This document shows, piece after piece, positions 27,570-62,602 of a stretch of 64,000 nucleotides of DNA. Both the position numbers and the translations under genes were made by a program. The DNA lies in NCBI GenBank assembly GCA_028702135.1, contig JAQVPJ010000010.1, positions 3,114 to 67,113 on the forward strand, written 5' to 3'. The stretch is from Eubacteriales bacterium. Lineage in GTDB: Bacteria; Bacillota; Clostridia; Oscillospirales; CAG-382. Each line of letters starts with the position of its first letter. Positions within the stretch are counted from its first letter, which is position 1. The notes below the pieces were generated by a model, which made no database searches, was not told where the DNA came from, and saw only the letters and a program-made list of their open reading frames with translations.

Positions 27570-28511
27570 TTATTTTAAATATGTTTCTATTATATAACGC
27601 GGTCTGTGCTTTGATTCCATATAGGTTTTTCCTATATATTCGCCGACAATACCGGTAGATAGGAACTGAAAACCGAAAAACGCACATGCCAATGCCGTAT
27701 AAAAAATTTTGTCTCCGAATTCTCTGCCGCATAAGAATAAAACAAAGAGAGTCAAAAGCATGCAGATACCCGCAAATAGAGACAATGCGCCGACAAAGGA
27801 GATCATTTTTATCGGCTTTACGGAAAAGGATGTTATCCCGTCCCATGCGAACGAAAGCATCTTTTTAAGAGGATATTTTGATTCTCCGGCAAAGCGTTTT
27901 TCCCTTTTGTAGGATACCGTGGTGCTTTTGAATCCGATAAGCGGTACAATACCTCTTAAAAACAAATTTACTTCACTAAATTTCTCCATACTCTCAAGTG
28001 CGCGTTTTGACATAAGCCTGTAATCGGCGTGATTGTAAACTGTTTCGACACCCATACAACTCATCAGCTTGTAAAAAAGAAGCGCTGTGCTTTTTTTAAA
28101 AAAGGAATCAGTCTTACGGGAACTCCTGACTCCGTATACAACCTCACAACCTTCTTCATACCTCAAGAGCATTTCGTCGATAGCGTCGGTATCATCCTGT
28201 AAATCCGCATCGAGTGAGATTGCAGTATCGCAATGCTCTTTTACGGTCATCAGACCGGCAAGAAGTGCATTCTGGTGGCCCTTGTTCCTTGACAGCTTTA
28301 TTCCCTGAAAAACAGGGTTTTGTCCGTGAAGGCCCTCGATAATATTCCAGGTATCATCCTTTGAGCCATCGTCAACGAATACGATCCTGCTCTCGGGAGA
28401 AATCCTGTTTTCTACGATAAGGTCGCTTACCTTTTTCAAGAGCCTTTTTGAAGTCTCGGGCAGAACCTCCTGCTCGTTATAACATGGAACAACTAAATAC
28501 AGCTTGTTCAT
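27570..28511 (-). CDS. GT2 polyprenyl-phosphate glycosyltransferase (GtrB/CsbB-like)
   Basis: YLVVPCYNEQEVL, FVDDGSKDDT, DXD as SLDADLQDD, and two C-terminal TM helices, over ~313 aa. Confidence 0.85.
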   Translation of the reverse strand: MNKLYLVVPCYNEQEVLPETSKRLLKKVSDLIVENRISPESRIVFVDDGSKDDTWNIIEGLHGQNPVFQGIKLSRNKGHQNALLAGLMTVKEHCDTAISLDADLQDDTDAIDEMLLRYEEGCEVVYGVRSSRKTDSFFKKSTALLFYKLMSCMGVETVYNHADYRLMSKRALESMEKFSEVNLFLRGIVPLIGFKSTTVSYKREKRFAGESKYPLKKMLSFAWDGITSFSVKPIKMISFVGALSLFAGICMLLTLFVLFLCGREFGDKIFYTALACAFFGFQFLSTGIVGEYIGKTYMESKHRPRYIIETYLK

Positions 28512-28513
28512 TT

Positions 28514-30661: not shown

Positions 30662-30740
30662 AATCTCTCCGTTGAATGCAATAATGTAATGTTAATTATT
30701 ATAACACCTTTTTATATATTTGTCCACATCATAATTCGAT

Positions 30741-30801
30741 AAAAAATTAACAGCGGTATTTCTGCAAAATATTTGCCGTATTTTGCAGAGTTTACCGCTG
30801 T
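30741..30801 (-). terminator. Long hairpin terminator after the DUF4855-like gene
   Basis: acagcggta...tctgcaaaata / tattttgcaga...taccgctgt nested stem, followed on the minus strand by aattttttt. Confidence 0.75.
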
Positions 30802-30814
30802 ATTAATGTTGTTT

Positions 30815-33376: not shown

Positions 33377-33525
33377 TTTGTACCTCAATTTTCTGATTTG
33401 GTTCTGATATACCTGTGTAAAGGGTTTAATCATACTATTATAGTATAATATTTTTTCGCTTTTTTCTCAATATCTTAACTGACGAAATAATCACCGCATA
33501 ATTAGTTGTTTTGACCGAAAAATAT

Positions 33526-43762: not shown

Positions 43763-46213
43763 TTATATAAATAATGACATATCGGATTCTTCCGCATTCG
43801 CAAGCATTGCCGCAGCTCCTGATAGTTTTACGCCGTCGATCAGCTCTGACGGATGGATCCCCATAATGTCCATGCTCATCGAGCAGGCTATCAGCTCAAC
43901 GCCGCTTTCCTGTGCTTGTTTGAGAAGAAACTCAGGACTGTCTACGTTTTTCGCTTTCATGACACTGCGGATCATTTTTGCACCCATACCACCCATATTC
44001 ATTCTTGAAATCGGCAGCTTCTTTATCCCACGAGGCATCATTATACCGAACATTTTCGATAAGAAATTCTTTTTTACTTTTACCTTTTCGGGACGCCGGA
44101 GAATATTTAAACCCCAGAACGTGAAAAACATGCTGACCTTTCTTCCCATCGCGGCTGCTGCGTTGGCAATAATCAGGGAAGCGATCGCCTTATCCAGATC
44201 TCCCGAGAATACGATAATATTTTTATTTTCCTTATTCGTACCCCCCGTTTCAGGTTGTTTTATACCCTTTTGTACTTTAGCAACGCTGACCCCCTTGTTG
44301 CTTTCCATTCCCAAAAAGACATTTCCGGTCCTGCGGCAGAAACCCTCAAGGTCGCTCGCAAATGCGGGGTCCGTGGTGGATATTTCGATAATATCGCCTA
44401 TATTTGCTCTGCTTAATGCTTCGGACAGTTTTACAATCGGCCCTGGGCATTGAAGTCCGCAGGCATCGAGTGAGATCGTATTTTTATCTGTTGTTGCTGT
44501 ATTGTTGACTATCTGTGTTTCGGGATTGACAAAGTTCATTGTCGGTTTAGGTGAATGTGTCCCGAAAATCGAGTTATAGAGCCTGTATCCTCCGCTGAGG
44601 TTATAGGCATTATACCCGTTCTGAATTAAAATTCTCGTCGCTATATATCCGCGAAGACCTATCTGACAGGTTACATAAACATCTTTTTTCCTGTCTATTT
44701 CCGAAAGCCTTTCCCTCAGACTGTCGAGCGGGATATTGATAAAGCCATCGATATGACTGTTTTGATACTCGATCGGCGTGCGTGTGTCGAGCAGAGTTAC
44801 ACTGCCGTCCCGCGGGAGCTTTTCAACATCGTGCCAATGAAAATTCCTGATTCTGCCCGAAAGGATATTTTCTATAACAAAACCTGCCATATTGACGGGG
44901 TCCTTTGCAGAGCCGTAAGGCGGTGCGTAGCATAATTCAAGTTTTGCCAAATCATATGCTGTCATACCGCCGCGTATAGCGGTTGCAATAACATCGCATC
45001 GCTTGTCGGTCCCGTCATACCCCACAATCTGCGCACCGAGTATTTTCCCCGTATCTTTTTCAAAAATTGTTTTGATGGACATATTAACGGCCCCGGGATA
45101 ATAGCTTGCATGATTTGCCGAGTATGTGAAGGATTTGTCATAATCGAGGCCTGACCGCTTTGCTGTTTTTTCATTCACGCCGGTGGAGGCAACCGTGAGA
45201 TCAAAGGCCTTTAATATCGACGAGCCTTGTGTTCCGGTATACGCGCTGTTAAGGCCGCATATATTGTCGGCTGCAATTCTGCCCTGCTTATTCGCGGGGC
45301 CGGCAAGCGGAACGGATACTTTATTTCCCGTAACGAAATCCGTGACCAGAACGGCGTCTCCGACCGCGTATATATCTTTTTCGCTCGTTTGCATATGTTC
45401 GTCTGCGATTATATAGCCGCGTTCGTTAAGAGCTATTCCTGCCTCTTTTGCGATTTTAGTTTCGGGGCTTACTCCTGCAGCCATTATCATCATATCCGCT
45501 TCAGTTATACCGCTGTTGGTAGCTAATTTTAAAGAAGTACCGTCGTCGATGATAGAGCGTACTGTATTGCCGAGCAGCAGCTTTACTCCCTTAGACTCGA
45601 CATGTCTGTGCACGTCGCTGGCCATATCATAATCAATAGTGCCGATGAGCTGGTCTGCCATTTCGATTATAGTAACCTCAATACCGGCTTTATGCAGATT
45701 CTCCGCCATTTCGACGCCGATAAATCCTCCGCCGACCACAGCGGCACGCCTCGGCTTTTTGCTGTCTATAAATTCCTTAATTCGAAAAGTATCGGGAATA
45801 CTGCGAAGGGTGAACACCTTGTCGGAATTTATCCCGTCAATATTCGGCAATATGGGTTTTGCGCCCATTGATAACACCAGCTTGTCATATGACTCCTCAT
45901 AAGTTCCGTCTGTGGAATGGTTTCTGACCGTAACTGTTTTTGTTTTTACATCAATAGCGATAACCTCGCTGTTAATGCGTACATCCACATTAAAACGCGT
46001 TCTGAAACTCTCCGGTGTCTGAAGAGTGAGTGAGGATTTATCCTTTATCTCACCGCCGATATAATAGGGAAGTCCGCAATTCGCATATGAAATATACTCA
46101 CCGCGCTCAAACATCACGATAACGGCAGACTCATCCAACCTGCGCAGTCTTGCCGCCGCTGTTGCGCCGCCTGCAACTCCGCCGATAATCAGCACCTTTT
46201 TTTGGCTATTCAT
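43763..46213 (-). CDS. CoA-disulfide/persulfide reductase-type flavoprotein fused to rhodanese, TusA-like and DsrE-like domains
   Basis: GGVAGGATAA with redox Cys in SYANCGLPYY. There is a second Rossmann fold (VVGGGFIGVE). The rhodanese loop is VTCQIGLRG. The TusA motif is LDACGLQCPGPIVKL. A C-terminal DsrE/F-like domain follows. Confidence 0.8.
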   Translation of the reverse strand: MNSQKKVLIIGGVAGGATAAARLRRLDESAVIVMFERGEYISYANCGLPYYIGGEIKDKSSLTLQTPESFRTRFNVDVRINSEVIAIDVKTKTVTVRNHSTDGTYEESYDKLVLSMGAKPILPNIDGINSDKVFTLRSIPDTFRIKEFIDSKKPRRAAVVGGGFIGVEMAENLHKAGIEVTIIEMADQLIGTIDYDMASDVHRHVESKGVKLLLGNTVRSIIDDGTSLKLATNSGITEADMMIMAAGVSPETKIAKEAGIALNERGYIIADEHMQTSEKDIYAVGDAVLVTDFVTGNKVSVPLAGPANKQGRIAADNICGLNSAYTGTQGSSILKAFDLTVASTGVNEKTAKRSGLDYDKSFTYSANHASYYPGAVNMSIKTIFEKDTGKILGAQIVGYDGTDKRCDVIATAIRGGMTAYDLAKLELCYAPPYGSAKDPVNMAGFVIENILSGRIRNFHWHDVEKLPRDGSVTLLDTRTPIEYQNSHIDGFINIPLDSLRERLSEIDRKKDVYVTCQIGLRGYIATRILIQNGYNAYNLSGGYRLYNSIFGTHSPKPTMNFVNPETQIVNNTATTDKNTISLDACGLQCPGPIVKLSEALSRANIGDIIEISTTDPAFASDLEGFCRRTGNVFLGMESNKGVSVAKVQKGIKQPETGGTNKENKNIIVFSGDLDKAIASLIIANAAAAMGRKVSMFFTFWGLNILRRPEKVKVKKNFLSKMFGIMMPRGIKKLPISRMNMGGMGAKMIRSVMKAKNVDSPEFLLKQAQESGVELIACSMSMDIMGIHPSELIDGVKLSGAAAMLANAEESDMSLFI

Positions 46214-49844: not shown

Positions 49845-50565
49845 ATGCTACTAATGGCATTGTCTTACTATGGGACATGGTTCTACACTTGTCGGATGAT
49901 GTACTTGACAACGAAAATTTCAAGAGGATATTTTTCTTCTCATACGTCGTTTCTTTGGCTTAGTTTACGAAATTGCGCTAAACCAAATAGTTGTTGAGAT
50001 ACTTCGTAGAAACGCCTTTAAATGGGTTCAGAAAGAGTTTCAGTTCACTGTTATAAGCGTTCATGCGCTGAATGTTGCAAATGCTTCTCTTCTCTCTGCC
50101 ACCCTTTAATTGCACCAGATTAAACGTGTTTTTAGTGGCAAAACGGATATAAGAATTCAATTTATCCGTGCAGAGAGTGGATTTCGGGTTGAATCGGTCG
50201 TTAAAAACAACATGGAGGGCTTTAGTTGATAACCTTCCCAAATTGGACACCTTACTGATAGAATGACCATTTCTGTCGATTGCACAAGGGACGCAAACTT
50301 TCTCATACGAAATACCATGTACATGGACATCCTCGCCCCTCTTATGAGCCTTTCTGGGCATTGTTATGGTTTCCTTTATAAGAGATGTTAAAAAATGTCT
50401 CATCTGCTTCTATGATACCATTTATTCTCACAGAGTTCGCCATGTTTTGAAGAACGTCGAGAATCTTGTGCCTACACGCAAAAGCAGTGTTCTTGTGGAT
50501 GCCACAGTATTCCGCTGTTTTACGTAAGGACTTACCGTTTTTTGAAATATGGGTTTATATTATAA
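49845..50565 (-). mobile_element. Degraded IS1595-family (ISXO2-like) transposase pseudogene
   Basis: Minus-strand frames read ...SLRKTAEYCGIHKNTAFACRHKILDVLQNMANSVRINGIIEADETFFNISYKGN..., then a frameshift, ...HGISYEKVCVPCAIDRNG...LCTDKLNSYI...KGVSTKYLNNYLV, then TAG where W is expected, then NFVN, then TAA, then AKETTYEKK. The N-terminal zinc-ribbon part is missing and no inverted repeats were identified. Confidence 0.65.
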
Positions 50566-50627: not shown

Positions 50628-51224
50628 TTATTTTTCGTTATTTTCATGGGCATGGATGATATTTTCCGCTATTTCCCTTCGCTTTACACAGGTGTCCATA
50701 GCTGACCTTTCTATGTAGCGGTGAGCCTGTGACTCGCTCATAAAATGATGTTCTATCAGTATCAGCTTGGCTCTGTTAATTATTCTTATGTCCTCCATTC
50801 TGCTCTCAAGCGAAACCGACTTTTTATGAATGGAGGCTATTTTCGTTACTGCTGCAGTCAATAGTTTCATCGACTGTATTATAAGCTGTTTTGACGCTGG
50901 TTTTTGAAGGGTCAGGATTCCTGCTTTTCCGACCATGACGGATATCTGGTCGTACAAATCGCCGCTTACAAGCAATAAAATACCGATAAAATCATTTTTT
51001 GCAGCATCAAGTGCCAAATCTACTCCCAGCTCATCTGTCAGCGGTGTATTGATGAGGACGATATCTATTGATTTGTTTACAAGAATCCGTTTTGCCTCTC
51101 CTGCATCGTAAACGGTTTGTACCGACCTGAAATTCTCATCCGAAAGTATTCCGCTTATATATCCGGCACCCTTCAAAGAGCCTGAAACTATCAGTACGTT
51201 GATTGCATCATTCTCCGCGAACAT
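50628..51224 (-). CDS. ANTAR-domain RNA-binding antiterminator with a pseudo-receiver N-domain
   Basis: C-terminal ANTAR (IINRAKLILIEHHFMSESQAHRYIERSAMDTCVKRREIAENI). The receiver-like N-domain lacks the acidic pocket: VLIVSGS where DD is expected, and DIVLINTP where the phospho-Asp is expected. The KP motif is kept. Confidence 0.8.
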   Translation of the reverse strand: MFAENDAINVLIVSGSLKGAGYISGILSDENFRSVQTVYDAGEAKRILVNKSIDIVLINTPLTDELGVDLALDAAKNDFIGILLLVSGDLYDQISVMVGKAGILTLQKPASKQLIIQSMKLLTAAVTKIASIHKKSVSLESRMEDIRIINRAKLILIEHHFMSESQAHRYIERSAMDTCVKRREIAENIIHAHENNEK

Positions 51225-51256
51225 ATCATCCCTCCCGACTTTAATAAAAGCATCGG

Positions 51257-52459
51257 TTATTTATACAGGCCGATATACATATCGGGCAGCACAGACCTGA
51301 CAAAAGCGCTGGATTCAGCTTCTTTTATGGCCTCACTGAGGCTTGAGGGCAGGGTTTTTAATTGTTCGGTAATGCTCTTATCCGCAAAAAGCAGATTTGT
51401 GTTGACGGGCCCGGTGAGTCTCAGACCTCTCTTTATGCCGTCAAGCCCGGCATAAATCAATAGTGAATAAGCGATAAAGGGGTTTGCCATCGGATCGGGG
51501 GAACGAACCTCGATCCGGCGAGACGGGCTGTTTGAGACGGGAACACGGATTAACTGAGAGTGGTTCTCGTGCGACCAGGAAATGTATTTCGGTGCTTTTT
51601 TCTCTCCAAGCCTCAGGTATGAGTTCTCGCACGGGTTTAAAAATGCGGTTATTTCACTTATATGCTCCATTATTCCCGCTATAAAGCCATCTGTATAATC
51701 TACGCCCTGCGTGCTGTTGACAGAAATACTTATATGCATTCCGTTGCCGCTCTTACCCTCAAGCGGTTTCGGAGAAAAATCAGCGTAAAGACCGTTCCGC
51801 ATCGCTATAGTTTTTACAACCATCCTGAAGGTCGTCGCATTTTCTGCTGCCGTTAAGGCAGCCGAGTGTCTGTAATCAATTTCATTCTGACCCGGACCCT
51901 CCTTGTGATGAGAACATTCCGGGTATATGCCCATATCCAGAAGCGAAAGGCATATTTCACGGCGGACATTCTCGCCCTTATCCTCGGGCGCTATATCCAT
52001 ATACCCTGCGTTGTCGAAAGGAATCTTGGTCGGCTCGCCGTTTTCATCGAACTTGAAAAGGTAAAACTCAAATTTTGAGCTGAAAAGACAGGAAATTCCC
52101 ATGTCATTGGCGGTACGGACAGCTTTTTTTAATATAAAGCGCCCGTCCTTTTCAAAAAAACTGCCGTCGGGATATTTTATGTCACAAAACATCCTTATAA
52201 CCCTGCCTGTGGATGGTCGCCAGGGGAGGATGGATATGGTAGAAGGGTCGGGATGCAGAAAAAGGTCGGATCTGACCTCTGCGTTAAAACCGTTTACGGC
52301 AGAAGCGTCAAAAGCGATTCCCTCGGTAAAGGCACGGTGAAGCTCATCGGGCATTATTGATATGTTTTTCTGCTTTCCGTTAATGTCGCAGAACGCAAGC
52401 CGGATGAACTTGACATCCTCCTCTTTTACATAAGTCATAACCTCGTCATAAGTATACAT
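51257..52459 (-). CDS. glnA: Glutamine synthetase (GlnA family, short ~400-aa form)
   Basis: An N-terminal beta-grasp (VKFIRLAFCDINGKQK) is followed by the catalytic motifs HHKEGPGQNEID and KPLEGKSGNGMHIS. Confidence 0.85.
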   Translation of the reverse strand: MYTYDEVMTYVKEEDVKFIRLAFCDINGKQKNISIMPDELHRAFTEGIAFDASAVNGFNAEVRSDLFLHPDPSTISILPWRPSTGRVIRMFCDIKYPDGSFFEKDGRFILKKAVRTANDMGISCLFSSKFEFYLFKFDENGEPTKIPFDNAGYMDIAPEDKGENVRREICLSLLDMGIYPECSHHKEGPGQNEIDYRHSAALTAAENATTFRMVVKTIAMRNGLYADFSPKPLEGKSGNGMHISISVNSTQGVDYTDGFIAGIMEHISEITAFLNPCENSYLRLGEKKAPKYISWSHENHSQLIRVPVSNSPSRRIEVRSPDPMANPFIAYSLLIYAGLDGIKRGLRLTGPVNTNLLFADKSITEQLKTLPSSLSEAIKEAESSAFVRSVLPDMYIGLYK

Positions 52460-52542
52460 CGGTATTCCTCCTTAAAATCAGGAAAGGTATTCATTCGGAA
52501 AAGGAAAAACCTTAACAAATGAACACCGTTGCTCATTTACTA

Positions 52543-52571
52543 ATTATACCTTTTTATAACTTTTTTGTCAA
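52543..52571 (-). promoter_or_regulatory. glnA promoter
   Basis: Minus strand: TTGACA (52571-52566), 17 nt, TATAAT (52548-52543). Confidence 0.6.
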
Positions 52572-52597
52572 TTATTTGAAAAAAGATTTTTATTGTA

Positions 52598-52626
52598 TTG
52601 ACAAGAACACAAAAGTAGTGTATAAT
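52598..52626 (+). promoter_or_regulatory. gdhA promoter
   Basis: TTGACA (52598-52603), 17 nt, (tg)TATAAT (52621-52626). Confidence 0.6.
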
Positions 52627-52638
52627 TACACTATATAA

Positions 52639-54051
<1,413 letters not shown>

Positions 54052-54067
54052 GCTATTAACAAAACAA

Positions 54068-54106
54068 AAAAATCAGATTTTTCCGTTTTTGGTAAAATCT
54101 GATTTT
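54068..54106. terminator. Bidirectional terminator between gdhA and the Dlt-like operon
   Basis: aaaatcagattt pairs with aaatctgatttt, with A- and T-runs flanking on both sides. Confidence 0.75.
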
Positions 54107-54113
54107 ATTTTTG

Positions 54114-54635
54114 TCAATCTGTGATCGCTATATACTTTATATCGGTTATAGTATCGTTTACAACGATTATCTCAAGGTTTGTTTTGCCTCGTTTATAGGT
54201 ATAAAAACCGTTCTTTTCCTCGTAATCATCCGGTAAGGCTGTTTTTACTTCAGAGAACTTATCGCCGATGCAGATTCCCTCTTTGGTTTCGACGCTGTCG
54301 TCAAGCAGTTTGATAATATATATATAATCCGTCCCGTCCTTCGGATATGTGTTTATCTCGAAGCTGTTGTAGACATAGAATTTGTCTACTCCCGAAAAAG
54401 CGCAGGAAGGGGACTCGAAATAATTTTTCGCCTCTCCGAGTGAAGAAATAACAGGCGCAGCTTTGCCGTTAGGCCTGATTTTCAAGTCGTTATAAATAAA
54501 TTCAAAGCCCTCTATGGATTCGGATGCCCCGGTAATTGCCACTGTCGACGAATTGCCGGAGGAAGTATCCGTATTATTATCCCCGCAACCCGCGAGCAGC
54601 AGGGCAAGGCAGATGATTATTGCTGTTTTTCTCAT
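54114..54635 (-). CDS. Small lipoprotein of unknown function (last gene of the Dlt-like operon)
   Basis: The start at MRKTAIIICLALLLAGC gives a lipobox and follows the RBS gaggag. It begins 4 nt after the upstream stop. No motif was recognised. Confidence 0.55.
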   Translation of the reverse strand: MRKTAIIICLALLLAGCGDNNTDTSSGNSSTVAITGASESIEGFEFIYNDLKIRPNGKAAPVISSLGEAKNYFESPSCAFSGVDKFYVYNSFEINTYPKDGTDYIYIIKLLDDSVETKEGICIGDKFSEVKTALPDDYEEKNGFYTYKRGKTNLEIIVVNDTITDIKYIAITD

Positions 54636-54639
54636 AGAT

Positions 54640-55725
54640 TCAATTCTCCTCATCGATTGTTTCAGGTTTTGCGCCAAAGCTCTTCAGATAACCGTATTCC
54701 ATAAGCTCTTCTTCCTGCTTTTGCTTCATATCATAATAGAACTCTTTTTTGGATTCCCAGATTTCATTTAATTGGGCGTCGTTTCTTCGGTCCCCGATGC
54801 CGTATTTCTCGCTGAGAATTTTACCGAAATATCTCGTGAGCTTCTCCGCACCCGAAAGATTAAGATGAAGTCCGCCGTCGTAGGTGTCGGTGCTGTTATC
54901 AATTCCTGTTTCCTCAGAGAGGTTCAGGAAGTTGATGTATTCTATTTCGTTCTCTTTTGCATAATGCACCATCTGTTCATCCCACTGCTCATACCAGTAG
55001 GGAAAAACACTGGGAGCTTTCATCAGAATAAATCTTATCCCGTTATCCTTGCACAACTTAGTCATCCTGTCAAGGTAATCATAACAGGTATCGCTGAAAC
55101 GGTAATCAGGCAGTGCGTCACCCTTTGGCACATAGTTTACAGGCTTGATATCCGCTCTCATGAGAAAACCGTTGTGGGAAACTTTATCCCTGCACATCAG
55201 ATATTTAAAATCCTCCGCTTGAAGCTCGCTCCACCTCGAATGATATCTGAGAATCGGGAAAAGGTAGGTGATAGGCTCCTCATCGTCCATCATAGATGCC
55301 TTTACGGCGTTGATTTTAGAAGCCGAAAATCTCATTCCGTCGAGGGTGAGACGATTGTATTCCTCCTTGTGGGGTGTGTCGCTTTTCATGGATAATACGT
55401 TGAATACGACGACATCGGGTTTTTCGTAGGTCAGCGTCTCCTCGAGCAAATAATAAGACTGCCAGATAAGCTGCTCCGCGCTGCCGCGTATATAGCTTGT
55501 GATTCCGTAGTTTTCCCAGAGAGTGACCGGAGAGATATTTGAATACACCTCGCAGTCACCTATAAAGATAACGTCGTGATCCTTTTTTTCACTATAATAC
55601 TCGGCGATCAGATTACCCTCGCGTATTGAAGTCATATACTTGGGCATAAGCAGGCTTTGAACCAAATAGAGAAGTATCAGTATAACCAACAGGACTATTG
55701 AATTGACGATAACTTTCTTTTTCAT
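54640..55725 (-). CDS. Membrane-anchored SGNH-like protein (DltD/AlgJ-like position)
   Basis: An N-terminal TM helix is followed by VIFIGDCEVYS, which is block-I-like but has Cys where the GDS Ser is expected. Late DGGLHLN (a block-V-like D...H) is present. It lies directly downstream of the MBOAT gene. Confidence 0.55.
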   Translation of the reverse strand: MKKKVIVNSIVLLVILILLYLVQSLLMPKYMTSIREGNLIAEYYSEKKDHDVIFIGDCEVYSNISPVTLWENYGITSYIRGSAEQLIWQSYYLLEETLTYEKPDVVVFNVLSMKSDTPHKEEYNRLTLDGMRFSASKINAVKASMMDDEEPITYLFPILRYHSRWSELQAEDFKYLMCRDKVSHNGFLMRADIKPVNYVPKGDALPDYRFSDTCYDYLDRMTKLCKDNGIRFILMKAPSVFPYWYEQWDEQMVHYAKENEIEYINFLNLSEETGIDNSTDTYDGGLHLNLSGAEKLTRYFGKILSEKYGIGDRRNDAQLNEIWESKKEFYYDMKQKQEEELMEYGYLKSFGAKPETIDEEN

Positions 55726-55734
55726 GACTACCCT

Positions 55735-57339
55735 CTAAAACCGGCTGTATATAAACTGTGCCGCATCGTAACCCACACCATATGCACCGAAGACGATGAT
55801 TGACAAAAACAACGCAAAGTTGACGCAATAACTCACAAAAGGCTTTTTTGCTATTTTTTCGCGTATGCTCCCCGTACGCTGTGCCAAGCTGACCGCAAGC
55901 AGTAATCCTACCGCGGCAATGATTACGATATAGTCGGGTACGGTGAGCCCGAGCTTCATAAAGCCGCCCTGAAGTAACTCCCTTATATTGAGATTGGTAA
56001 AAACGGTTCCGACCATTCTGAAGGTTTTGCCGACACCGGGGTAGCAATCGAGAGTTCTTAAGAAGCACATCAGCCAGAAAGTGCGGACGACTTGAAATAA
56101 ACGGAAAATAAAAGTATGAGAAATATGGTACCTCCCGTGGAATCTCTCATATAAAGGTGAAAGCTCGTGTGACACTACGATAACGACGGCGTTGAGCAAT
56201 CCCCATACTACGAAGTTCCAGGAAGCGCCGTGCCATAAACCTGTTGTAAACCATATAAGCAGTGTTGAGACATATACCGGCACTCTTTTTCCCACAGGCT
56301 TTCCGAACTTATCTTTGCAGAACTTTGAAAGACGGGTGACAGGCTTGCTCAGGGAAACCGGATAATACATATAGTCTTTAAACCATGTGCCGAGCGTTAT
56401 GTGCCACCTTCTCCAATATTCCGCAATGGATTTTGAGAAGAAGGGTCGGTTGAAGTTCTCTGCTTGCCGTATTCCCAGAGCCTGTGATATTCCCAATGTG
56501 ATATCAATGCCTCCGCTGAAATCGGCATATAGTTCAATCGCATAAAAAAGCATTCCCAAAAGAACAAACACGCCCGTAAATTCCTGCGTGTCTCCTATTA
56601 TGGTTTTAACGGCTACATACAGACGGTCTGCGATAACAAGCTTTTTAAAATATCCCCAGAGAATTCTCTGAAATCCGAATGATATATTCTCCCGGTCGAG
56701 TGAATGCTCCTCAAAAAGCGTCTTTTTCAAATCATCGAAACGGCTGATAGGTCCCTGAACCAATTGAGGAAAGTAGGAGATAAAAAGCGCAAATTTTAAA
56801 AAGTTGCTCTCGTATTTGTATTTTTCTCTGTATATGTCAATAAGATACCCCGCACTTTGAAAAGTGTAGAAGGATATTCCGAGAGGAATAATGAAGTTCT
56901 TTACGGGCAAGCTCCATTCGGGGTTGAATATTTTTGCGACGGAATTTATGTTTGATATCCCAAAATCCGTATATTTGAGTACCGCAAGAATTCCGAAAGA
57001 GAACAAAAGGCATAATAAAATCCATCTTTTCCGTATGGATTTTATCCTCTGTCTGTATTCTTTTATTTCTTCCTTTGAGAGAGCATCCTTGTTGGATGCC
57101 AGGTACTCAGCTTGTTTTGACGAAAGGGAATTTAGCTTCCGGCCGGTAAAAAAGGTCGAAACTGTAGTCGCCAGCATATATATGCCGTACTTAATACCGA
57201 CGAAACTGTAGAACACATAGCTTGCAACAAGAAGCAGCATCCATTGAAAGCGTTTGGGTATCAGATAATAAACTGCAAAAAGCACAAGCAGGAACAGCAA
57301 AAAGCTGTAAGAAGTAAACTGCATACTTACACCGTTCAT
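55735..57339 (-). CDS. MBOAT-family membrane O-acyltransferase (DltB/AlgI-like)
   Basis: 534 aa and polytopic. WRRWHITLGTWFKDYMYYP and GLWHGASWNFVVWGLLN (MBOAT His region). ATGA overlap with the carrier-protein gene. Confidence 0.85.
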   Translation of the reverse strand: MNGVSMQFTSYSFLLFLLVLFAVYYLIPKRFQWMLLLVASYVFYSFVGIKYGIYMLATTVSTFFTGRKLNSLSSKQAEYLASNKDALSKEEIKEYRQRIKSIRKRWILLCLLFSFGILAVLKYTDFGISNINSVAKIFNPEWSLPVKNFIIPLGISFYTFQSAGYLIDIYREKYKYESNFLKFALFISYFPQLVQGPISRFDDLKKTLFEEHSLDRENISFGFQRILWGYFKKLVIADRLYVAVKTIIGDTQEFTGVFVLLGMLFYAIELYADFSGGIDITLGISQALGIRQAENFNRPFFSKSIAEYWRRWHITLGTWFKDYMYYPVSLSKPVTRLSKFCKDKFGKPVGKRVPVYVSTLLIWFTTGLWHGASWNFVVWGLLNAVVIVVSHELSPLYERFHGRYHISHTFIFRLFQVVRTFWLMCFLRTLDCYPGVGKTFRMVGTVFTNLNIRELLQGGFMKLGLTVPDYIVIIAAVGLLLAVSLAQRTGSIREKIAKKPFVSYCVNFALFLSIIVFGAYGVGYDAAQFIYSRF

Positions 57340-57566
57340 TCATTATTCTGCAAACGCTCTATCAAGCAAAAAAGTGCTTTTGCAGAATTAAAATTCTCGG
57401 GAACGATCTCCTCCACAGGGATGGTTATGTCAAACTCATCATTGATTTCGGCAATAAGCGTCACAATGTCAAAGGAATCGATTATATTGTTGTCTATGAG
57501 CTTATCGCTGTTTTCAAAATCAACCTCAGGATGAAGCTCGCTTAAAATTCCGATCAATCTTTCCAT
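57336..57566 (-). CDS. DltC-like aminoacyl carrier protein
   Basis: 76 aa. IIDSFDIVTLIAEINDEFDITIPVEEI parallels the recalled DltC sequence LLDSFGTVELLLAIENRFDI, with the phosphopantetheinyl Ser in DSF. Confidence 0.8.
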   Translation of the reverse strand: MERLIGILSELHPEVDFENSDKLIDNNIIDSFDIVTLIAEINDEFDITIPVEEIVPENFNSAKALFCLIERLQNNE

Positions 57567-59090
57567 TTATTTTCTTCCCGTTTCTCTTATATATTTTTCC
57601 CTTAACTCCTTGCGGTCAACCTTTCCGCTCAGGGTTACGGGCAAGCTTTCAAGATGCAAAACTACGTTCGGTATCATATACCTCGGAAGCTTTTCTTTTA
57701 TAACGGAGATAATATAATTCTTTGAAGCCTCGCCGGTATAATAGAGCACGAGCTTTTTACTGTGTTCGTCGAATATACAGCATACGCTTCCGGCACTGTC
57801 TGCTGTGCTTGCAGCGAGCTCTATCTCACCGAGCTCGATTCTGTATCCCATATGCTTTATCTGATTATCCCTGCGGCTTATAAATAACAATTCTCCGTTT
57901 TCGTTGTATCTTCCTAAATCACCCGTGCGGTAGATTAGCTCGGGATAAAGGTCATTGAGCGGGTTTTGTATAAAAACCTCGCCAGTTTTATCAAAATTCC
58001 CGTAATAACCAAGCGTAAGCGCAGTGCCTCTTATGCAGATTTCTCCAAGCTGTCCCGGCTCAGGGACTTTTTTATTCTCATCTAAAAGGATTATTTCCGT
58101 GTTTCTGAATGGTATTCCGACCGGAATAACTTCGTCGTGTTCAAAATCGCGCTTTATTTCATAATAGCATGAGAAACCTGTAGCCTCCGTGGGACCGTAA
58201 AGGTTAAAATATCTGACTTCAGGAAGGTATTTTCTAAAGATTTGAAGGTGCTTTGGAGGGAAGAACTCACCGCCGAACGTTATGGTCTTCAGGTATTTCG
58301 GCAAAACCTTTTCGAAAACCTTAAAAGTTGATAATACAGTAAGAGCAGAAGCAACCCAGCAAATCGTGTTGATTCTGTTTTCGTTCAGATACTCCGCAAG
58401 TTTAATCGGGAACATAAAAAGCTTTTTCGGAATAAGGTAAGCGGTTGCACCGGTTTTTATTACTGAAAAAACATCTTTCAGGCAGCCGTCAAGATAAAGC
58501 GGAGCCTGATTTCCGAACACGGTTTCACTGTCAAAGCCGATTGCTTCGGCGAGATTGTCAAGATAATCTATTACTGAACGGTGACAGGCGGCGACACCTT
58601 TTGGTATCCCCGTCGAACCTGAGGTGTAGACCACATAAACAGGATCGGTATCTATCTGCTTGTCCTCTATGCGGCGAAGGATATTATCATCCGCCGCTGT
58701 TTTTATTATATCTTCATATATATATATATTTCCGCTAAAACCATATTCTTCAGAAATGGGAAAGGTTTCTTTATCACAAAGGACAGTTACTGATTTAAGG
58801 CTTTTCAGTATCAGCTCTATACGTTGTTTAGGCATCTCCTCGTCTATGGGGATATAGTGGCATCCCGCATATATAACGCCTAAAAAAGCGGTTATGGTTC
58901 CCGGATGTTTTCCCATAAAAACAACAATGGGTTCTTTTGTGAAACCCTTAACGCCAAAAAACGTTCCTATCGCTCGTGCGTTCTCATATACCTGACGAAA
59001 GGATAACTCCTCGAAGTCATCCGCAAAAGCGATTTTTTCGGGAAATACCTTCACTGTGTGTTCAAGATACTCCAAAATGCTTTTCTGCAA
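57567..59090 (-). CDS. Stand-alone adenylation enzyme (DltA-like carrier-protein ligase)
   Basis: AMP-binding core motifs YVVYTSGSTGIPKG, YGPTEAT, YRTGDLG and GKVDRK. The 507-aa size resembles DltA. Confidence 0.85.
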   Translation of the reverse strand: MQKSILEYLEHTVKVFPEKIAFADDFEELSFRQVYENARAIGTFFGVKGFTKEPIVVFMGKHPGTITAFLGVIYAGCHYIPIDEEMPKQRIELILKSLKSVTVLCDKETFPISEEYGFSGNIYIYEDIIKTAADDNILRRIEDKQIDTDPVYVVYTSGSTGIPKGVAACHRSVIDYLDNLAEAIGFDSETVFGNQAPLYLDGCLKDVFSVIKTGATAYLIPKKLFMFPIKLAEYLNENRINTICWVASALTVLSTFKVFEKVLPKYLKTITFGGEFFPPKHLQIFRKYLPEVRYFNLYGPTEATGFSCYYEIKRDFEHDEVIPVGIPFRNTEIILLDENKKVPEPGQLGEICIRGTALTLGYYGNFDKTGEVFIQNPLNDLYPELIYRTGDLGRYNENGELLFISRRDNQIKHMGYRIELGEIELAASTADSAGSVCCIFDEHSKKLVLYYTGEASKNYIISVIKEKLPRYMIPNVVLHLESLPVTLSGKVDRKELREKYIRETGRK

Positions 59091-59091
59091 A

Positions 59092-60732
59092 TTACTCTAA
59101 CACCTCGTCCATGTTAAATTCCTCGGTCGGTGTCCTGGGGTATGAATCCATATCGAAAACATAATAGTTAATTCCGCGTGACTGCGTAAGAGCCGCAACC
59201 TGATCGTCCGTAAGCATGAAGGTGGGCTTGAAATCCAAAAAGTTGCAGGTGTCAAAATGGTACCAGCCGCTTCCGCAGTTGACCAAATTCCAATAATGGT
59301 TGGAGCTGCCCCCGACTCTTGTAACCTTCATGTTATCGATATTTACTCTGTTGAGCATAACCTCCGACACAATATAATAAGTGAAACAGTCTCCGAAACC
59401 GGTGGTTATCCCCTCATGTGCTTCTTTTATCCAGTCCGTAATACCGGCATGACTTTCGTATCTTATATTTCCTCTTATCCAGGTATAAATCGCATACGCC
59501 TGTTGCTCTTTTGTCATATCTTCGGTCAGGATTTCATCAAGAATACCATCGACAAGCTCATTTAACGCATCCTCCGAAACCGTTTCCTTTATTACTGTAA
59601 CCTTAATTGATTTGGAGCTTGTGTTTCCGCTGCTGTCAGTGGCGGTATAGGTAACGCTGTAAGTGCCCTCTTTTGTAATGTCCACATTGCTGCTGTCTAT
59701 GTGCAATTCGACCTCGGAATCCTTGTTGTCCTTTACGAACACATCCTTTTTATAGGCGACCGCTTTACCGATATAAACACTTTTATCGTTAAGTCCGTAT
59801 ATTTCGGGAGGCTCGGTGTCTTTTTTTACGGTTAAAATAGCTGTTTTTTCGGTTGTGTTTTTGAATGAGTCTTCAATTATTATTACAACCTGACGTATTC
59901 CGGTCGAGGAAAAATCGGGTTCCGACTTAAAATAAGCGGAAACCTCTGAGGCGTCGTTTATATCGGTTATAAACGTCAAGGCTTCGATCGGCTCGTTCAA
60001 CCATGCTTCACAGTTGATTGTATTCGCTTCGGGTGGTGTTGTGTCGATGACCTCGATCCTTACGGGTACGGTTTTGCCGCCGTATAAAACATTGACGATG
60101 TGTACCGCCGGTTTTTTTGTGTCTATTGTCGAAATGTCTGTTTCAAACGATAGGGGAACACCGTCATTCAGTGAAAAATCAGCAGCGTTTATATTAAGCA
60201 CGATGCCAGCCTCAACTTGAACCGAGCTTCTGACATTGACGATATCAATTGTCGCGGATAACTCCTTTTTATTGTCACAGAGATCGCGCAACACAAGCTC
60301 TACCTGCTGTACGCCTGTTTTTGTAAAATCCGGTTTTTTTATATATTCAACCGTAATATCAGTCGCATCGGTTACGTTATAAACGAACTCGCTCGCTTCA
60401 ACCTCTCTATAAATGGGTGAAACAAGATTTACTGCTGTCGCCTCCGGCGGAATCGTATCAACTATTTCAAGGGTGGAATTAAAAATCCTGTCGCTTACCT
60501 TTAACTCAATGTTATATGTGCCGGGTTTTTTTAAGTCGAGAGCTGAAATATCCGACACAAAGTCGCCTTTTAAACAACTGTCAAGCAAGAAATCATTTAT
60601 TGTCACTTCCGAGCCGGCTTCTATCGTTACCTGTTCCTTAACCTTCGGCTTAAACGAATCGAATACGAATAACTCCAATGCGACAAGTATAATAAAAATT
60701 ACAATCAAAAAAAAGGTTTTCTTGTTAATCAT
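59092..60732 (-). CDS. Membrane-anchored surface protein with five Ig-like modules and a C-terminal transglutaminase-like (Cys-His-Asp) core
   Basis: An N-terminal TM helix is followed by alternating repeat modules (VTIEAGSEV...PPEA and VQVEAGIVL...PPEA, plus two ...DFxxTG... modules and one HYR/DUF5011-like module). The C-terminus reads GFGDCFTYYIV...SNHYWNLV...WYHFDTC. Confidence 0.65.
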   Translation of the reverse strand: MINKKTFFLIVIFIILVALELFVFDSFKPKVKEQVTIEAGSEVTINDFLLDSCLKGDFVSDISALDLKKPGTYNIELKVSDRIFNSTLEIVDTIPPEATAVNLVSPIYREVEASEFVYNVTDATDITVEYIKKPDFTKTGVQQVELVLRDLCDNKKELSATIDIVNVRSSVQVEAGIVLNINAADFSLNDGVPLSFETDISTIDTKKPAVHIVNVLYGGKTVPVRIEVIDTTPPEANTINCEAWLNEPIEALTFITDINDASEVSAYFKSEPDFSSTGIRQVVIIIEDSFKNTTEKTAILTVKKDTEPPEIYGLNDKSVYIGKAVAYKKDVFVKDNKDSEVELHIDSSNVDITKEGTYSVTYTATDSSGNTSSKSIKVTVIKETVSEDALNELVDGILDEILTEDMTKEQQAYAIYTWIRGNIRYESHAGITDWIKEAHEGITTGFGDCFTYYIVSEVMLNRVNIDNMKVTRVGGSSNHYWNLVNCGSGWYHFDTCNFLDFKPTFMLTDDQVAALTQSRGINYYVFDMDSYPRTPTEEFNMDEVLE

Positions 60733-60781
60733 AAGCCCGTCTTAACTTTCTTCAGAAATAAAAATATTTATAAAAGCAGGA

Positions 60782-61876
60782 TTATATCCAGCACTGATTG
60801 TCGTCCAGATCGAGGGTAAATATGCTTTCTTCATCCTGCTCAAATTTCGCCTGATGAAACTTGAAAACGACTTTGTTCCCCTCGGGATTTCCTATAATCT
60901 CGATTTTTCCTTTTTCGTTGGACAGTATATAGCGGAAGCACTTTGCCTGACCGTTCAGAAGCTTCCTTGTTTCCGAAATGATTTTGCAGCCTTCTTTTAT
61001 AGGTACCTGGAATTGATTCTTGACACCTGCGACAGGTCTGCATTGAAATATGTAGTAGGGAATTACGCCGATGCTTACAAGACTGTTCAAAAGCTCCGCC
61101 ATTATTTCGTGATTGTTATTAACACCCTTTAACAGTACGGTCTGGTTTTTTACAATAACACCTATATCCGTCAGGCATTTTATCGCCTTTTTGGATTCCT
61201 CGGTAATCTCCTTAGGATGATTATATTGTGTTACTACGTAAATTGCTTTCTTTTTATTGTATTTTTTCAGTATTTCCAGCAGCTCGCTGTCATCATATAT
61301 ACGGGACGGTAATACGACGGGTGTCCTCGTGCCGAACCTTATCAAGCGTATGTGCTCCATCCCGGAAAAAGCTTTAAGATAAGCTTCTATCTCCCGATTG
61401 CTTAATAAAAACGCATCACCACCCGTTATGAGTACGTTGTTTATCTCTTTTCTTGCCTCTACATATGATATGTTTTCGCTAAAGCGTTTGCTAATCTCCT
61501 TGTCGCTTATACCGACAAGCCTTTTGCGAAAACAATGTCTGCAGTAAGTAGCGCATTTGTTAGTGGCTAAAATCAATGCGGTCTGCTTGTATTTATGCTG
61601 CAGTCCGACCATAACAGTATTGCTTTTTTCACCGCTGGTATCAAAGCTGCCGCTTATATCCGTTTCTGCGATAGATGGGATGCACAGCTTGCTCAGTGCG
61701 TCATTTTCGTTATTGGGATCTATCAGTGAAAGATAATATTTTGATATAGACATCGGATAAAGCTTGACAATGTTTTTGAGCCTGGCAGCCTCCTCATCGG
61801 ACAAATCCCAATGAAAATAATCCGAAAGCTGTTCTTCCTCTGTTATGTTTTCTTCTAATTCCTTCTGCCAATCCAT
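60782..61876 (-). CDS. KamA-family radical SAM / PLP aminomutase (not lysine-type by active-site residues)
   Basis: CATYCRHC cluster, YYLSLIDPNN, ITGGDAFLL and NQTVLLKGVNN. PYYIFQCR stands where clostridial lysine 2,3-aminomutase has PYYIYQCD. The start at MDWQKEL follows the RBS aggag. Confidence 0.8.
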   Translation of the reverse strand: MDWQKELEENITEEEQLSDYFHWDLSDEEAARLKNIVKLYPMSISKYYLSLIDPNNENDALSKLCIPSIAETDISGSFDTSGEKSNTVMVGLQHKYKQTALILATNKCATYCRHCFRKRLVGISDKEISKRFSENISYVEARKEINNVLITGGDAFLLSNREIEAYLKAFSGMEHIRLIRFGTRTPVVLPSRIYDDSELLEILKKYNKKKAIYVVTQYNHPKEITEESKKAIKCLTDIGVIVKNQTVLLKGVNNNHEIMAELLNSLVSIGVIPYYIFQCRPVAGVKNQFQVPIKEGCKIISETRKLLNGQAKCFRYILSNEKGKIEIIGNPEGNKVVFKFHQAKFEQDEESIFTLDLDDNQCWI

Positions 61877-62104
61877 TGTTTTGCTTCTCCTCTGTGCAGG
61901 TGGTTGCGAGACTGTTTGTGTGTATTCAATCATTTCGGAACCGCATAATTACAATTCTATATTATAAGCGTATGACTTGTTATTGTCAAGATTACCGTTG
62001 ATAATTTGTATTGGTTGTTAAGCCGTTTTATTATAAAAAAATAAAAGCTTTTTATCACAGCGAGGATTTAAGCATATAAATGATAATAAACGAGGATGAT
62101 TTAT

Positions 62105-62602
62105 ATGCCGAAAATAATGAATTACAACAGAGAAAACGTAGTTAAATACGCTGAAAAATGGGCTTTAAGACGCAATCCGGGATATTATGATTTTTCAAAT
62201 CTCGGTGGGGACTGCACGAATTTTTGTTCCCAGTGCCTGTACGCGGGCAGTGGAATAATGAACTATACGTCGGTTCACGGATGGTTTTACAGCAGTGCAG
62301 AGAAAAGAACACCGTCGTGGACGGGAGTGAATTTTCTATACAATTTTCTGACGACAAACAAAAAACGGGGTCCCTTTGCCGTGCAAACGGATATTGAGAA
62401 AATAGAAGTCGGGGACATAATTCAGCTCGGAAACTCCAAAAAAGGTTTTTATCACAGCCTGGTCGTCACGCTGATAAACGGAGTACCGAGCGAGGGCACA
62501 ATATATATTTCCACACATACAATGGACTTTTTCAACCGTCTGCTCAATCAATATATTTATGAGAAAATAAGATTTCTTTCTATCGGCGGAGTTTATGTTT
62601 AA
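62105..62602 (+). CDS. Putative amidase-domain protein (Amidase_6 / NlpC-P60-like Cys-His)
   Basis: YNRENVVKYAEKWA...GGDCTNFCSQCLYAGS...GWFY...SWTGVNFLYNFL...GDIIQL...YHSLVVT. Confidence 0.6.
   Translation: MPKIMNYNRENVVKYAEKWALRRNPGYYDFSNLGGDCTNFCSQCLYAGSGIMNYTSVHGWFYSSAEKRTPSWTGVNFLYNFLTTNKKRGPFAVQTDIEKIEVGDIIQLGNSKKGFYHSLVVTLINGVPSEGTIYISTHTMDFFNRLLNQYIYEKIRFLSIGGVYV

Follow-up and report, generated by a model that had tools for sequence, protein, structure and literature searches.

A 64-kb stretch of DNA from a Eubacteriales bacterium (contig JAQVPJ010000010.1; hereafter the window, to which all coordinates refer) contains a closely packed operon of seven minus-strand genes (54114-61933). 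In order of transcription they encode a KamA-family 2,3-aminomutase, a membrane-anchored protein with immunoglobulin (Ig)-like modules and a transglutaminase-like core, a stand-alone amino-acid adenylation enzyme (A-enzyme), an aminoacyl carrier protein, an MBOAT membrane acyltransferase, an SGNH-fold protein with a cysteine at the predicted nucleophile position, and a lipoprotein. Judged from sequence and gene order, the locus represents an uncommon version of a widespread and undescribed family of cousins of the Dlt system, and the cell probably carries an unusual acidic amino acid, likely of the beta type, on its surface. The reading that we favour, with somewhat better than even confidence, is that of a Dlt-like, carrier-dependent export pathway whose racemase was lost in the clade of the window, where KamA would now supply the substrate.

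A conserved six-gene cassette with an apparent exchange of its supply gene

The cassette was surveyed in 80 metagenome loci around the closest relatives of the SGNH protein (59-100% identity); the relative loci compared are designated here by L-numbers. Every sufficiently long locus shows the same core order, with genes for the Ig/transglutaminase protein, A-enzyme, carrier, MBOAT, SGNH protein and lipoprotein, and this six-gene core is found in more than 50 loci from Clostridia and Erysipelotrichia, with KamA limited to the clade of the window. In Coprobacillus cateniformis (L172) and on a Herbinix-type contig (L171) the core forms a tight seven-gene operon of the racemase type, and the C. 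cateniformis cassette is present in hundreds of gut-metagenome assemblies. The sequence of the Coprobacillus lipoprotein is indexed in 560 assembly-collection blocks, and the system is therefore common in human-gut samples.

In loci without KamA, the transglutaminase and A-enzyme genes are about 800 bp apart, and in 39 loci this space holds a co-directional gene encoding a protein of about 239 aa. Scored on the representative from L104, this protein passes the cut-offs of TIGR00035 (220.9 bits, cut-off 93.1) and of the CuyB cysteate racemase model (203.6 bits, cut-off 190), matches Pfam Asp_Glu_race with E = 7e-40, carries both catalytic Cys motifs (PCITAH and GCTE) and has the Pyrococcus aspartate racemase 1JFL as its best solved relative (E = 4e-51). 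The racemase is present in 39 of the approximately 49 cassettes that lack KamA, and absent from the window, L087, L007/L092, L088 and L174, where the stop codon of the transglutaminase gene abuts the start of the A-enzyme gene; no racemase homolog was found within the window as a whole. KamA lies directly upstream of the transglutaminase gene in all six KamA-type lineages, including L173, the contig of which ends inside the transglutaminase gene and shows only this upstream junction. Because 39 loci carry the racemase and the scorable KamA-type loci are without it, KamA appears to have replaced the aspartate-type racemase as the substrate-supply gene, a copy of a widespread and usually solitary clostridial aminomutase having come to lie at the head of the operon.

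The linkage of KamA to the cassette depends on how close the KamA protein is to that of the window. Behind KamA genes whose products are 66-77% identical to it (L087, L088, L173, L174 and L007/L092), the Ig/transglutaminase gene always follows after a spacer of 27-57 nt, and the full cassette is present wherever the contig is long enough; the genes at 63% identity (L089, L090 and L176) are solitary, and the cassette-linked copies cluster as a single clade in the midst of solitary ones. Upstream of the KamA-type loci the flanks differ (Amidase_6/V-ATPase, ABC transporter, SatD/DUF3307, leucine-rich-repeat protein, ApgM-like), and the seven-gene block remains intact despite at least five different upstream flanks. 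With the block kept while its flanks vary, the linkage does not appear to be mere synteny. Identity to the window falls alike for KamA and for every cassette protein, in the order L087 > L007 > L088.

KamA neighbourhoods were also compared in a genome collection, in 80 loci from different species with 49-70% identity to the window KamA. Only one of these, from Clostridiales bacterium UBA12491 (70% identity), has the cassette beside KamA, with all six other genes; the remaining 79 have neither the cassette nor any conserved neighbour, the commonest neighbour family occurring in 5 of the 80. Wide co-conservation of KamA with the cassette was rejected on this count, and the conservation of the gene beside the DltA-like, carrier and MBOAT genes across Clostridia, for which the original prediction had suggested a test, is not supported: one KamA locus in 80 has them, and more than 50 cassettes lack KamA. 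The tie of KamA to this particular locus fared better, as the gene lies in one promoter-terminator unit with the cassette, is kept there in six lineages and fills the role of the racemase. Since the KamA link is narrow and the core is widespread, the novelty of the locus lies mostly in the six-gene core and in the swap.

Both racemase and KamA are missing from about ten cassettes (L129, L132, L136, L138, L151, L152, L154, L155, L165 and L169). A shorter Ig/transglutaminase protein (364-459 aa) is encoded by most of these, and most keep the common code of the A-enzyme pocket described below, the diverged codes among them including those of L154 (DARCAVLGIK) and L165 (DAKCAALGVK). A third type of supply gene was considered for these loci and rejected, their neighbours being unrelated housekeeping genes.

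Organization and transcription of the locus

All seven open reading frames (ORFs) called from the sequence alone are found at the coordinates first given for them, with the start codons of the first and the last moved inward. The longest KamA reading frame reaches 61933, but translation almost certainly begins at Met20 (61876), giving 364 aa, because a GGAG element lies 11 nt upstream, the homologs are 364 aa long and the NCBI call is likewise 364 aa. For the lipoprotein the start moves to Met15 (54635), which yields MRKTAIIICLALLLAGC, a signal peptide with an LAGC lipobox. The tight spacing initially described stands as well: a single gap of 49 nt separates KamA from the transglutaminase gene, and the subsequent junctions measure 1 nt (transglutaminase/A-enzyme), 0 nt (A-enzyme/carrier), a 4-nt ATGA overlap (carrier/MBOAT), 9 nt (MBOAT/SGNH) and, with the corrected lipoprotein start, about 4 nt (SGNH/lipoprotein).

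A sigma-70-type promoter (TTGACA-17 nt-TATAAT; 61961-61989, minus strand) is located about 85 nt 5' of the probable KamA start and is the sole perfect 12/12 consensus match of the region. An Rfam search of the leader and locus revealed no riboswitch and no other RNA element. The 49-nt spacer between KamA and the transglutaminase gene (60733-60781, minus strand) is without a terminator, its fold (minimum free energy -5.3 kcal/mol, z +0.71) being equalled in stability by 151 of 200 shuffles. At the opposite end of the operon, the bidirectional terminator that had been proposed at 54068-54106 was recovered as an intrinsic terminator at 54069-54106, common to the operon and the convergent gdh gene, with an AT-rich stem and a U-run 3' of the hairpin on each strand. 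It is stable on both strands (dG -21.2 kcal/mol on the minus and -18.1 kcal/mol on the plus strand; z -6.1 and -5.1), none of 200 shuffles being as stable. By these predicted signals the locus is a single transcription unit, running from promoter to terminator; because the promoter lies 5' of KamA and the spacer has no terminator, KamA would be part of the same transcript as the cassette.

The KamA-family aminomutase

The proposed substrate supplier (60782-61876, minus strand; 364 aa) is a KamA-family radical S-adenosylmethionine (SAM)/pyridoxal phosphate (PLP) 2,3-aminomutase. It passes the TIGR00238 model of the KamA subfamily (253.5 bits, cut-off 199.2) and carries the motif CATYCRHC, in which the CxxxCxxC cysteines are C127, C131 and C134. 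Its best-scoring equivalog is the glutamate 2,3-aminomutase model TIGR04368 (277.1 bits), still below the cut-off of 650, and the cut-offs of the lysine model AblA (261 bits, cut-off 525), the arginine aminomutase model (231 bits, cut-off 600) and the EpmB model (200.6 bits, cut-off 369) are not reached either.

Alignment with the lysine 2,3-aminomutase (LAM) structure 2A5H (E = 1.6e-65) superimposes the three cluster cysteines and R136 on their LAM counterparts, and all four residues are invariant in 84 of 84 relatives. In LAM, Asp293 and Asp330 bind the epsilon-ammonium group of lysine; Asp293 aligns to Arg299 of the window KamA and, in a manual alignment, Asp330 aligns to Ser338. R299 is invariant in the same 84 relatives, as is K343, and S338 is found in 83 of them. 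By manual alignment past the HMMER-aligned region, K343 is equivalent to LAM Lys337 and is the probable PLP lysine. The protein thus resembles LAM, glutamate 2,3-aminomutase and EpmB in its TIGR00238 family, its CxxxCxxC cluster, its carboxylate-binding Arg and its probable PLP Lys, but differs from LAM in its length of 364 aa, in the lack of both the C-terminal domain and the Zn ligand Cys268, and in the replacement of both lysine-binding aspartates by Arg299 and Ser338. Activity on glutamate is possible, and would go beyond what family membership establishes.

More than 6,000 matches make the KamA subfamily a large one. Members of the 364-aa type, with Arg299/Ser338 and no C-terminal domain, are distributed over Clostridia and Erysipelotrichia and are also found in some metagenome-assembled genomes of Coriobacteriia and Spirochaetes; the solitary members listed (L008-L086, L089, L090 and L176) have no conserved neighbour.

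The adenylation pocket and the probable substrate

The A-enzyme (57567-59090, minus strand; 507 aa; AMP-binding, E = 1e-58) is matched best by the generic amino-acid adenylation model TIGR01733, at 294.8 bits and below the model's own cut-off of 317.4. It does not reach the cut-offs of the DltA models TIGR01734 (248.0 bits, cut-off 559.85) and NF003417 (253.8 bits, cut-off 476). Beta-amino-acid A-enzymes score 152 bits against it, compared with approximately 175-340 bits for structures of nonribosomal peptide synthetases and DltA.

The Stachelhaus positions of its substrate pocket were mapped with PheA and Bacillus subtilis DltA and anchored on the xGE motif and on DltA Cys269; the mapping reproduces the PheA code DAWTIAAICK and places DltA Cys269, at code position 301, and DltA Val301 correctly. 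The code obtained for DltA is DLMTLCTVAK, and 48 of 50 KamA-less cassettes share DAKCAGLGMK. Within the KamA clade the codes are DGKCTGLGFK (window and L087), DGKCAGLGMK (L007, L088 and L092) and DGKLAGLGMK (L174). The pocket of the window enzyme differs from that of DltA at 8 of 10 positions, with Gly at the position of Cys269, and is a roomy one, with Gly or Ala at positions 299, 301 and 330 and Lys at 239. Lys239 is also found in what we take to be the glutamate code, DAKDLGVVDK, and is presumably the residue that separates the Glu from the Gln code.

Of the A-enzyme columns, 187 show conservation of at least 95% in the KamA-less loci, and only 8 of these have another residue fixed in the KamA clade. 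Three of these changes, A236G, E240D and V281A, lie in or beside the pocket and introduce smaller side chains, and G236, D240 and A281 recur in L174, a locus outside the set from which the changes were derived. A236G and E240D would enlarge the pocket beside the amine-binding Asp235, and they appear to follow the swap from racemase to KamA.

Three independent pointers, the A-enzyme Lys239, the aspartate/cysteate-type racemase of the relatives and KamA Arg299, indicate that the substrate is probably an acidic amino acid. The supplier in most members is of the aspartate-racemase type, which points to a small acidic D-amino acid; D-aspartate, or a compound closely similar to it, is the most likely substrate of the racemase-type cassettes. 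In the KamA-type cassettes our best guess at the product is beta-glutamate. A 2,3-shift on L-glutamate yields beta-glutamate, equivalent to aspartate with one additional methylene beside the amine-bearing carbon, and the shortened side chains at positions 236, 240 and 281 are consistent with this longer substrate.

Carrier protein and MBOAT acyltransferase

The carrier protein (57336-57566, minus strand; 76 aa) scores above the PP-binding cut-off, with Ser31 as the predicted phosphopantetheine site, and its D30-S31 pair is invariant in 58 of 58 relatives. Its best solved relatives are the aminoacyl carrier protein 4H2S and DltC, and its scores against the two DltC equivalogs (35.7 bits, cut-off 68, and 24.6 bits, cut-off 52.35) fall short. 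The membrane acyltransferase (55735-57339, minus strand; 534 aa) matches Pfam MBOAT above cut-off (E = 4e-17), and its sole solved sequence relatives are the DltB structures 6BUG and 8JEM (E ~1e-23). DltB His336 aligns to His370, which together with H313 is invariant in 69 of 69 relatives. The score against the DltB equivalog TIGR04091 is 145.1 bits (cut-off 375, not reached), and the protein has 534 aa where DltB has about 415-440 aa.

Extracytoplasmic proteins with conserved cysteines

The second gene of the operon (59092-60732, minus strand) encodes a transmembrane-anchored protein with about five Ig-like modules and a transglutaminase-like Cys-His-Asp core. One of the five modules originally described passes Pfam (Bact_surface_Ig-like, E = 1e-10, above cut-off), and the other four are suggested by a repeated ...DTxPPE... 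pattern. The match to Transglut_core PF01841 (E = 4e-8; 33.8 bits, cut-off 23) assigns the protein to the transglutaminase-like (papain-fold) superfamily, and C449, H479 and D494 are invariant in 52 of 52 relatives; the protein may act as a transglutaminase, a protease or an amidase.

The SGNH-fold protein (54640-55725, minus strand), also transmembrane-anchored, corresponds to Pfam PF27429 'LB_356'. Profile searches against Pfam and NCBIfam gave no DltD match and no family above threshold, with a sub-threshold Pfam GDSL match, and the fold was recognized solely by Foldseek on the AlphaFold model (pLDDT 74, pTM 0.76). Foldseek matches include GDSL acylhydrolases (3e-5), DltD (8.5e-4, rank 19, TM-score ~0.36), PatB (1.4e-3) and TesA. 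The block II Gly (G81), block III Asn (N109) and block V His (H287) are kept, and block I has Cys58 instead of Ser as the predicted nucleophile. This GDC in place of GDS, already noticed in the original prediction, proved to be general: C58, G81, N109, D283 and H287 are invariant in 83 of 83 relatives. The 18 distant relatives inspected (at most 37% identity) all have a Ser nucleophile (GDS, GSS or GNS), and the two intermediate relatives inspected (40-44% identity) have Cys, like all 83 cassette loci. Because Ser prevails in distant relatives, and Cys in the intermediate and cassette members, Cys58 is, on this comparison, a derived and subfamily-specific Ser-to-Cys change at the predicted catalytic position. 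The family as a whole comprises 7,643 word-indexed matches and, in an exhaustive search, 6,703 representative clusters at E <= 1e-3.

The lipoprotein (54114-54635, minus strand; 173 aa) combines its LAGC lipobox with an invariant ExPSCAFxGxD motif, which contains Cys78. Profile searches found no family match. Its structural model (pLDDT 96-97 in the core) predicts a two-repeat beta-sheet fold for which no convincing match was found in the PDB, the best being the uncharacterised YfeY and the DUF4309 protein YjgB (E ~0.004-0.03). In nearly all loci its gene is kept 3' of the SGNH gene, as the last of the cassette. Three conserved Cys sites are hence located outside the membrane: C449 of the transglutaminase-like protein, Cys58 of the SGNH protein and Cys78 of the lipoprotein.

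A proposed pathway

In the pathway that we propose, KamA would convert an acidic L-amino acid, most likely L-glutamate, into its beta-isomer, beta-glutamate. The A-enzyme, with its presumed acid-binding Lys239 and enlarged pocket, would activate this product and load it onto the Ser31-phosphopantetheine of the carrier. The aminoacyl group would then cross the membrane via the MBOAT protein (His370), an outward passage proposed by analogy with Dlt, and be received outside by a Cys-based relay involving SGNH Cys58 and possibly lipoprotein Cys78. Delivery to an envelope acceptor would follow, with the transglutaminase-like enzyme as a candidate for amide transfer to an amine, or for editing. A thioester relay ending on an amine, as in transglutaminase chemistry, would fit the three cysteines, and a DltD-like ester end step is equally open. 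The fullest form of this proposal, in which the clade of the window decorates its envelope with beta-glutamate and the family as a whole uses an extracytoplasmic thioester relay to install acidic amino acids as amides and not as labile esters, we offer only tentatively, as the less probable outcome. We know of no surface polymer on which a beta-amino acid occurs; if the proposal is true, this may be the first beta-amino acid on a bacterial surface.

Alternative explanations

Several observations weigh against KamA as the dedicated supplier of beta-glutamate. The enzyme scores far below the cut-off of the glutamate aminomutase equivalog (277 against 650), and the glutamate 2,3-aminomutase signature that Ruzicka and Frey reportedly described in 2007 is Lys/Asn at LAM positions 293/330, where the window KamA has Arg/Ser. 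The linked KamA proteins do not differ in their active-site residues from about 80 solitary, cassette-free relatives, and the enzyme, which would have some other primary role, could have come to lie beside the cassette by chance. The pocket positions depend on the PheA and B. subtilis DltA fragments chosen as references, which passed the checks described above, and V281A is not exclusive to the KamA clade, since it also occurs in the racemase-type cassette of Coprobacillus. All KamA-type loci belong to one clade, and the swap and the pocket changes therefore amount to a single evolutionary event, not to replicated evidence. Lastly, the roughly ten cassettes without racemase or KamA, most of which retain the common pocket code, imply that an in-cassette supply gene is dispensable. 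One alternative is that KamA is a fortuitous neighbour, an ordinary solitary gene co-inherited in one family, and that the cassette beside it works just as in the KamA-less relatives, with an acidic D- or L-amino acid from another source as its substrate. The 79 of 80 other-species KamA loci that have neither cassette nor conserved neighbour, the unchanged active site, the supplier-free cassettes and the restriction to one clade all speak for this explanation. We nevertheless consider it unlikely, since every scorable KamA-type locus lacks the racemase that 39 of about 49 other cassettes carry, the junction between KamA and cassette is held at 27-57 nt in six lineages whose flanks differ, the position of the promoter and the lack of a terminator place KamA in the cassette transcript, and this clade also shows the changes at pocket positions 236 and 240.

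KamA could instead be a cryptic racemase, turning L-aspartate into D-aspartate, which the cassette would go on attaching. Because of the symmetry of aspartate about C2/C3, a 2,3-amino shift regenerates aspartate and, with a stereochemistry like that of LAM, would yield the D-isomer. A like-for-like replacement of an aspartate-type racemase would be explained in this manner, as would a pocket code that is nearly unchanged (DAK... to DGK...), and Arg299, longer than the Lys of glutamate aminomutases, could reach the shorter side-chain carboxylate; our stereochemical argument is extrapolated from the known course of the LAM reaction. We regard this as improbable: the idea is purely theoretical, the best-scoring equivalog is glutamate 2,3-aminomutase, we know of no KamA enzyme that acts on aspartate, and an unchanged substrate would give no reason to expect the fixed enlargement of the pocket at 236 and 240, which argues mildly against the idea. 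Far less probable still is an ordinary dlt operon, in which a diverged system for the D-alanylation of teichoic acids would have an unrelated gene upstream. The same ligase, carrier, MBOAT and SGNH logic, DltB as the sole solved relative of the MBOAT protein, DltC among the best carrier matches and the absence of a second dlt operon from the window would agree with it. Against it stand equivalog scores far below the cut-offs of DltA, DltB and DltC, the lack of a DltD family match, a pocket in which 8 of 10 positions depart from those of DltA, with Gly replacing Cys269, an aspartate-type racemase in the relatives where an alanine racemase would be expected, and a Cys nucleophile in place of Ser. 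Nor is there space for DltX: the original prediction had seen no dltX-like ORF, and none can be accommodated, the gaps within the locus being 49 nt or at most 9 nt. The NCBI pipeline gives the seven genes generic names, none of them Dlt. A canonical dlt operon was rejected on the equivalog scores, the pocket code, the racemase type and the Cys nucleophile, in line with the initial view of the locus as Dlt-like in logic but not canonical. The racemase-to-KamA swap in a Dlt-like export pathway accordingly remains the explanation that we prefer.

Genomic surroundings

No acceptor-pathway genes are evident in the window, where the surroundings of the operon include FeoB, NrdD, GlnA/ANTAR, glutamate dehydrogenase, V-ATPase and glycoside hydrolases. 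An Amidase_6 gene (62096-62602, plus strand; E = 8e-36) is divergent from the operon and shares a 160-bp promoter region with it; because its adjacency to KamA is found only in the window and L087, it is probably outside the system. On the other side, the interval 50628-54051 adjoins the operon with genes for an ANTAR response regulator and glutamine synthetase (minus strand) and the convergent glutamate dehydrogenase gene (52693-54051, plus strand). Glutamate-metabolism genes thus lie beside a putative glutamate-consuming pathway, an adjacency that is not kept in L088 or L007.

Further away, a row of minus-strand genes at 27570-33433 encodes a GT2 glycosyltransferase, a 715-aa protein without a Pfam family and an 872-aa protein with DUF4855 and Big_9; lying about 20 kb from the operon, this row may be a module for surface glycans. 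The product of the gene at 43763-46213 (minus strand; 816 aa) joins a pyridine-nucleotide oxidoreductase resembling CoA-disulfide reductase to rhodanese, TusA and DsrE-like domains in one chain, and looks like a multidomain sulfur-relay protein. A 141-aa ORF (49978-50403, minus strand), flanked by a methyltransferase gene and the ANTAR/glnA pair, resembles, by eye, a fragment of a truncated transposase.

Comparison with known systems

In the searchable literature we found no description of the cassette, nor of any combination of MBOAT and carrier with a racemase or aminomutase, which agrees, within that literature, with the novelty first claimed for the locus. Dlt D-alanylation is the textbook means by which Gram-positive bacteria tune their surface charge, their resistance to antimicrobial peptides and their interaction with the host. 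The cassette would define a second large Dlt-like family in many Clostridia and Erysipelotrichia, including the common gut species C. cateniformis, and one characterized by a probably acidic substrate, an SGNH protein with a predicted Cys nucleophile, a conserved transglutaminase-like surface enzyme and a new lipoprotein. The apparent exchange of a racemase for a radical-SAM aminomutase suggests that the substrate slot is exchangeable, offering a natural experiment on substrate specificity, and would give a first functional context to a KamA subfamily with thousands of members.

The cassette has in common with Dlt a stand-alone A-enzyme, a carrier of about 76-80 aa, an MBOAT protein with a catalytic His and a membrane-anchored SGNH protein, all encoded in one operon, as well as the passage of an acyl group across the membrane, predicted here by analogy. 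It differs in that its SGNH protein belongs to a different family from DltD, PF27429, and has Cys; in an MBOAT protein that is about 120 aa longer; in the gene order A-C-B-D; and in the addition of the Ig/transglutaminase protein, the lipoprotein and a substrate-supply gene, be it racemase or KamA. In the PatA/PatB, OatA, AlgI/AlgJ/AlgX and WssH/WssI systems an MBOAT and an extracytoplasmic SGNH protein likewise modify an envelope polymer, and the cassette MBOAT is of AlgI size, but these O-acetylation systems take acetate from a cytoplasmic donor, have no A-enzyme or carrier, and use an SGNH protein of the Ser type.

For the supply of the substrate, parallels are found in natural-product biosynthesis. 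The microcystin racemase McyF, one of the solved proteins related to the cassette racemase, is an Asp/Glu-family enzyme that feeds acidic D-amino acids to A-domains, and the cognate A-domains presumably have a basic amino acid at position 239 of their codes, like the cassette. This parallel fits the racemase-type relatives and not the window, and microcystin is a cytoplasmic cyclic peptide whose synthesis involves no envelope modification. The closest counterpart to the KamA-type arrangement is incednine biosynthesis, in which IdnL4, a radical-SAM enzyme of the glutamate 2,3-aminomutase type, makes beta-glutamate that is taken up by the A-enzyme IdnL1 and a carrier (PMC11284099). Macrolactam pathways of this type share with the window the logic that leads from aminomutase to A-domain to carrier, but they are cytoplasmic polyketide assembly lines of actinomycetes, with no MBOAT, SGNH or transglutaminase component and no envelope target.

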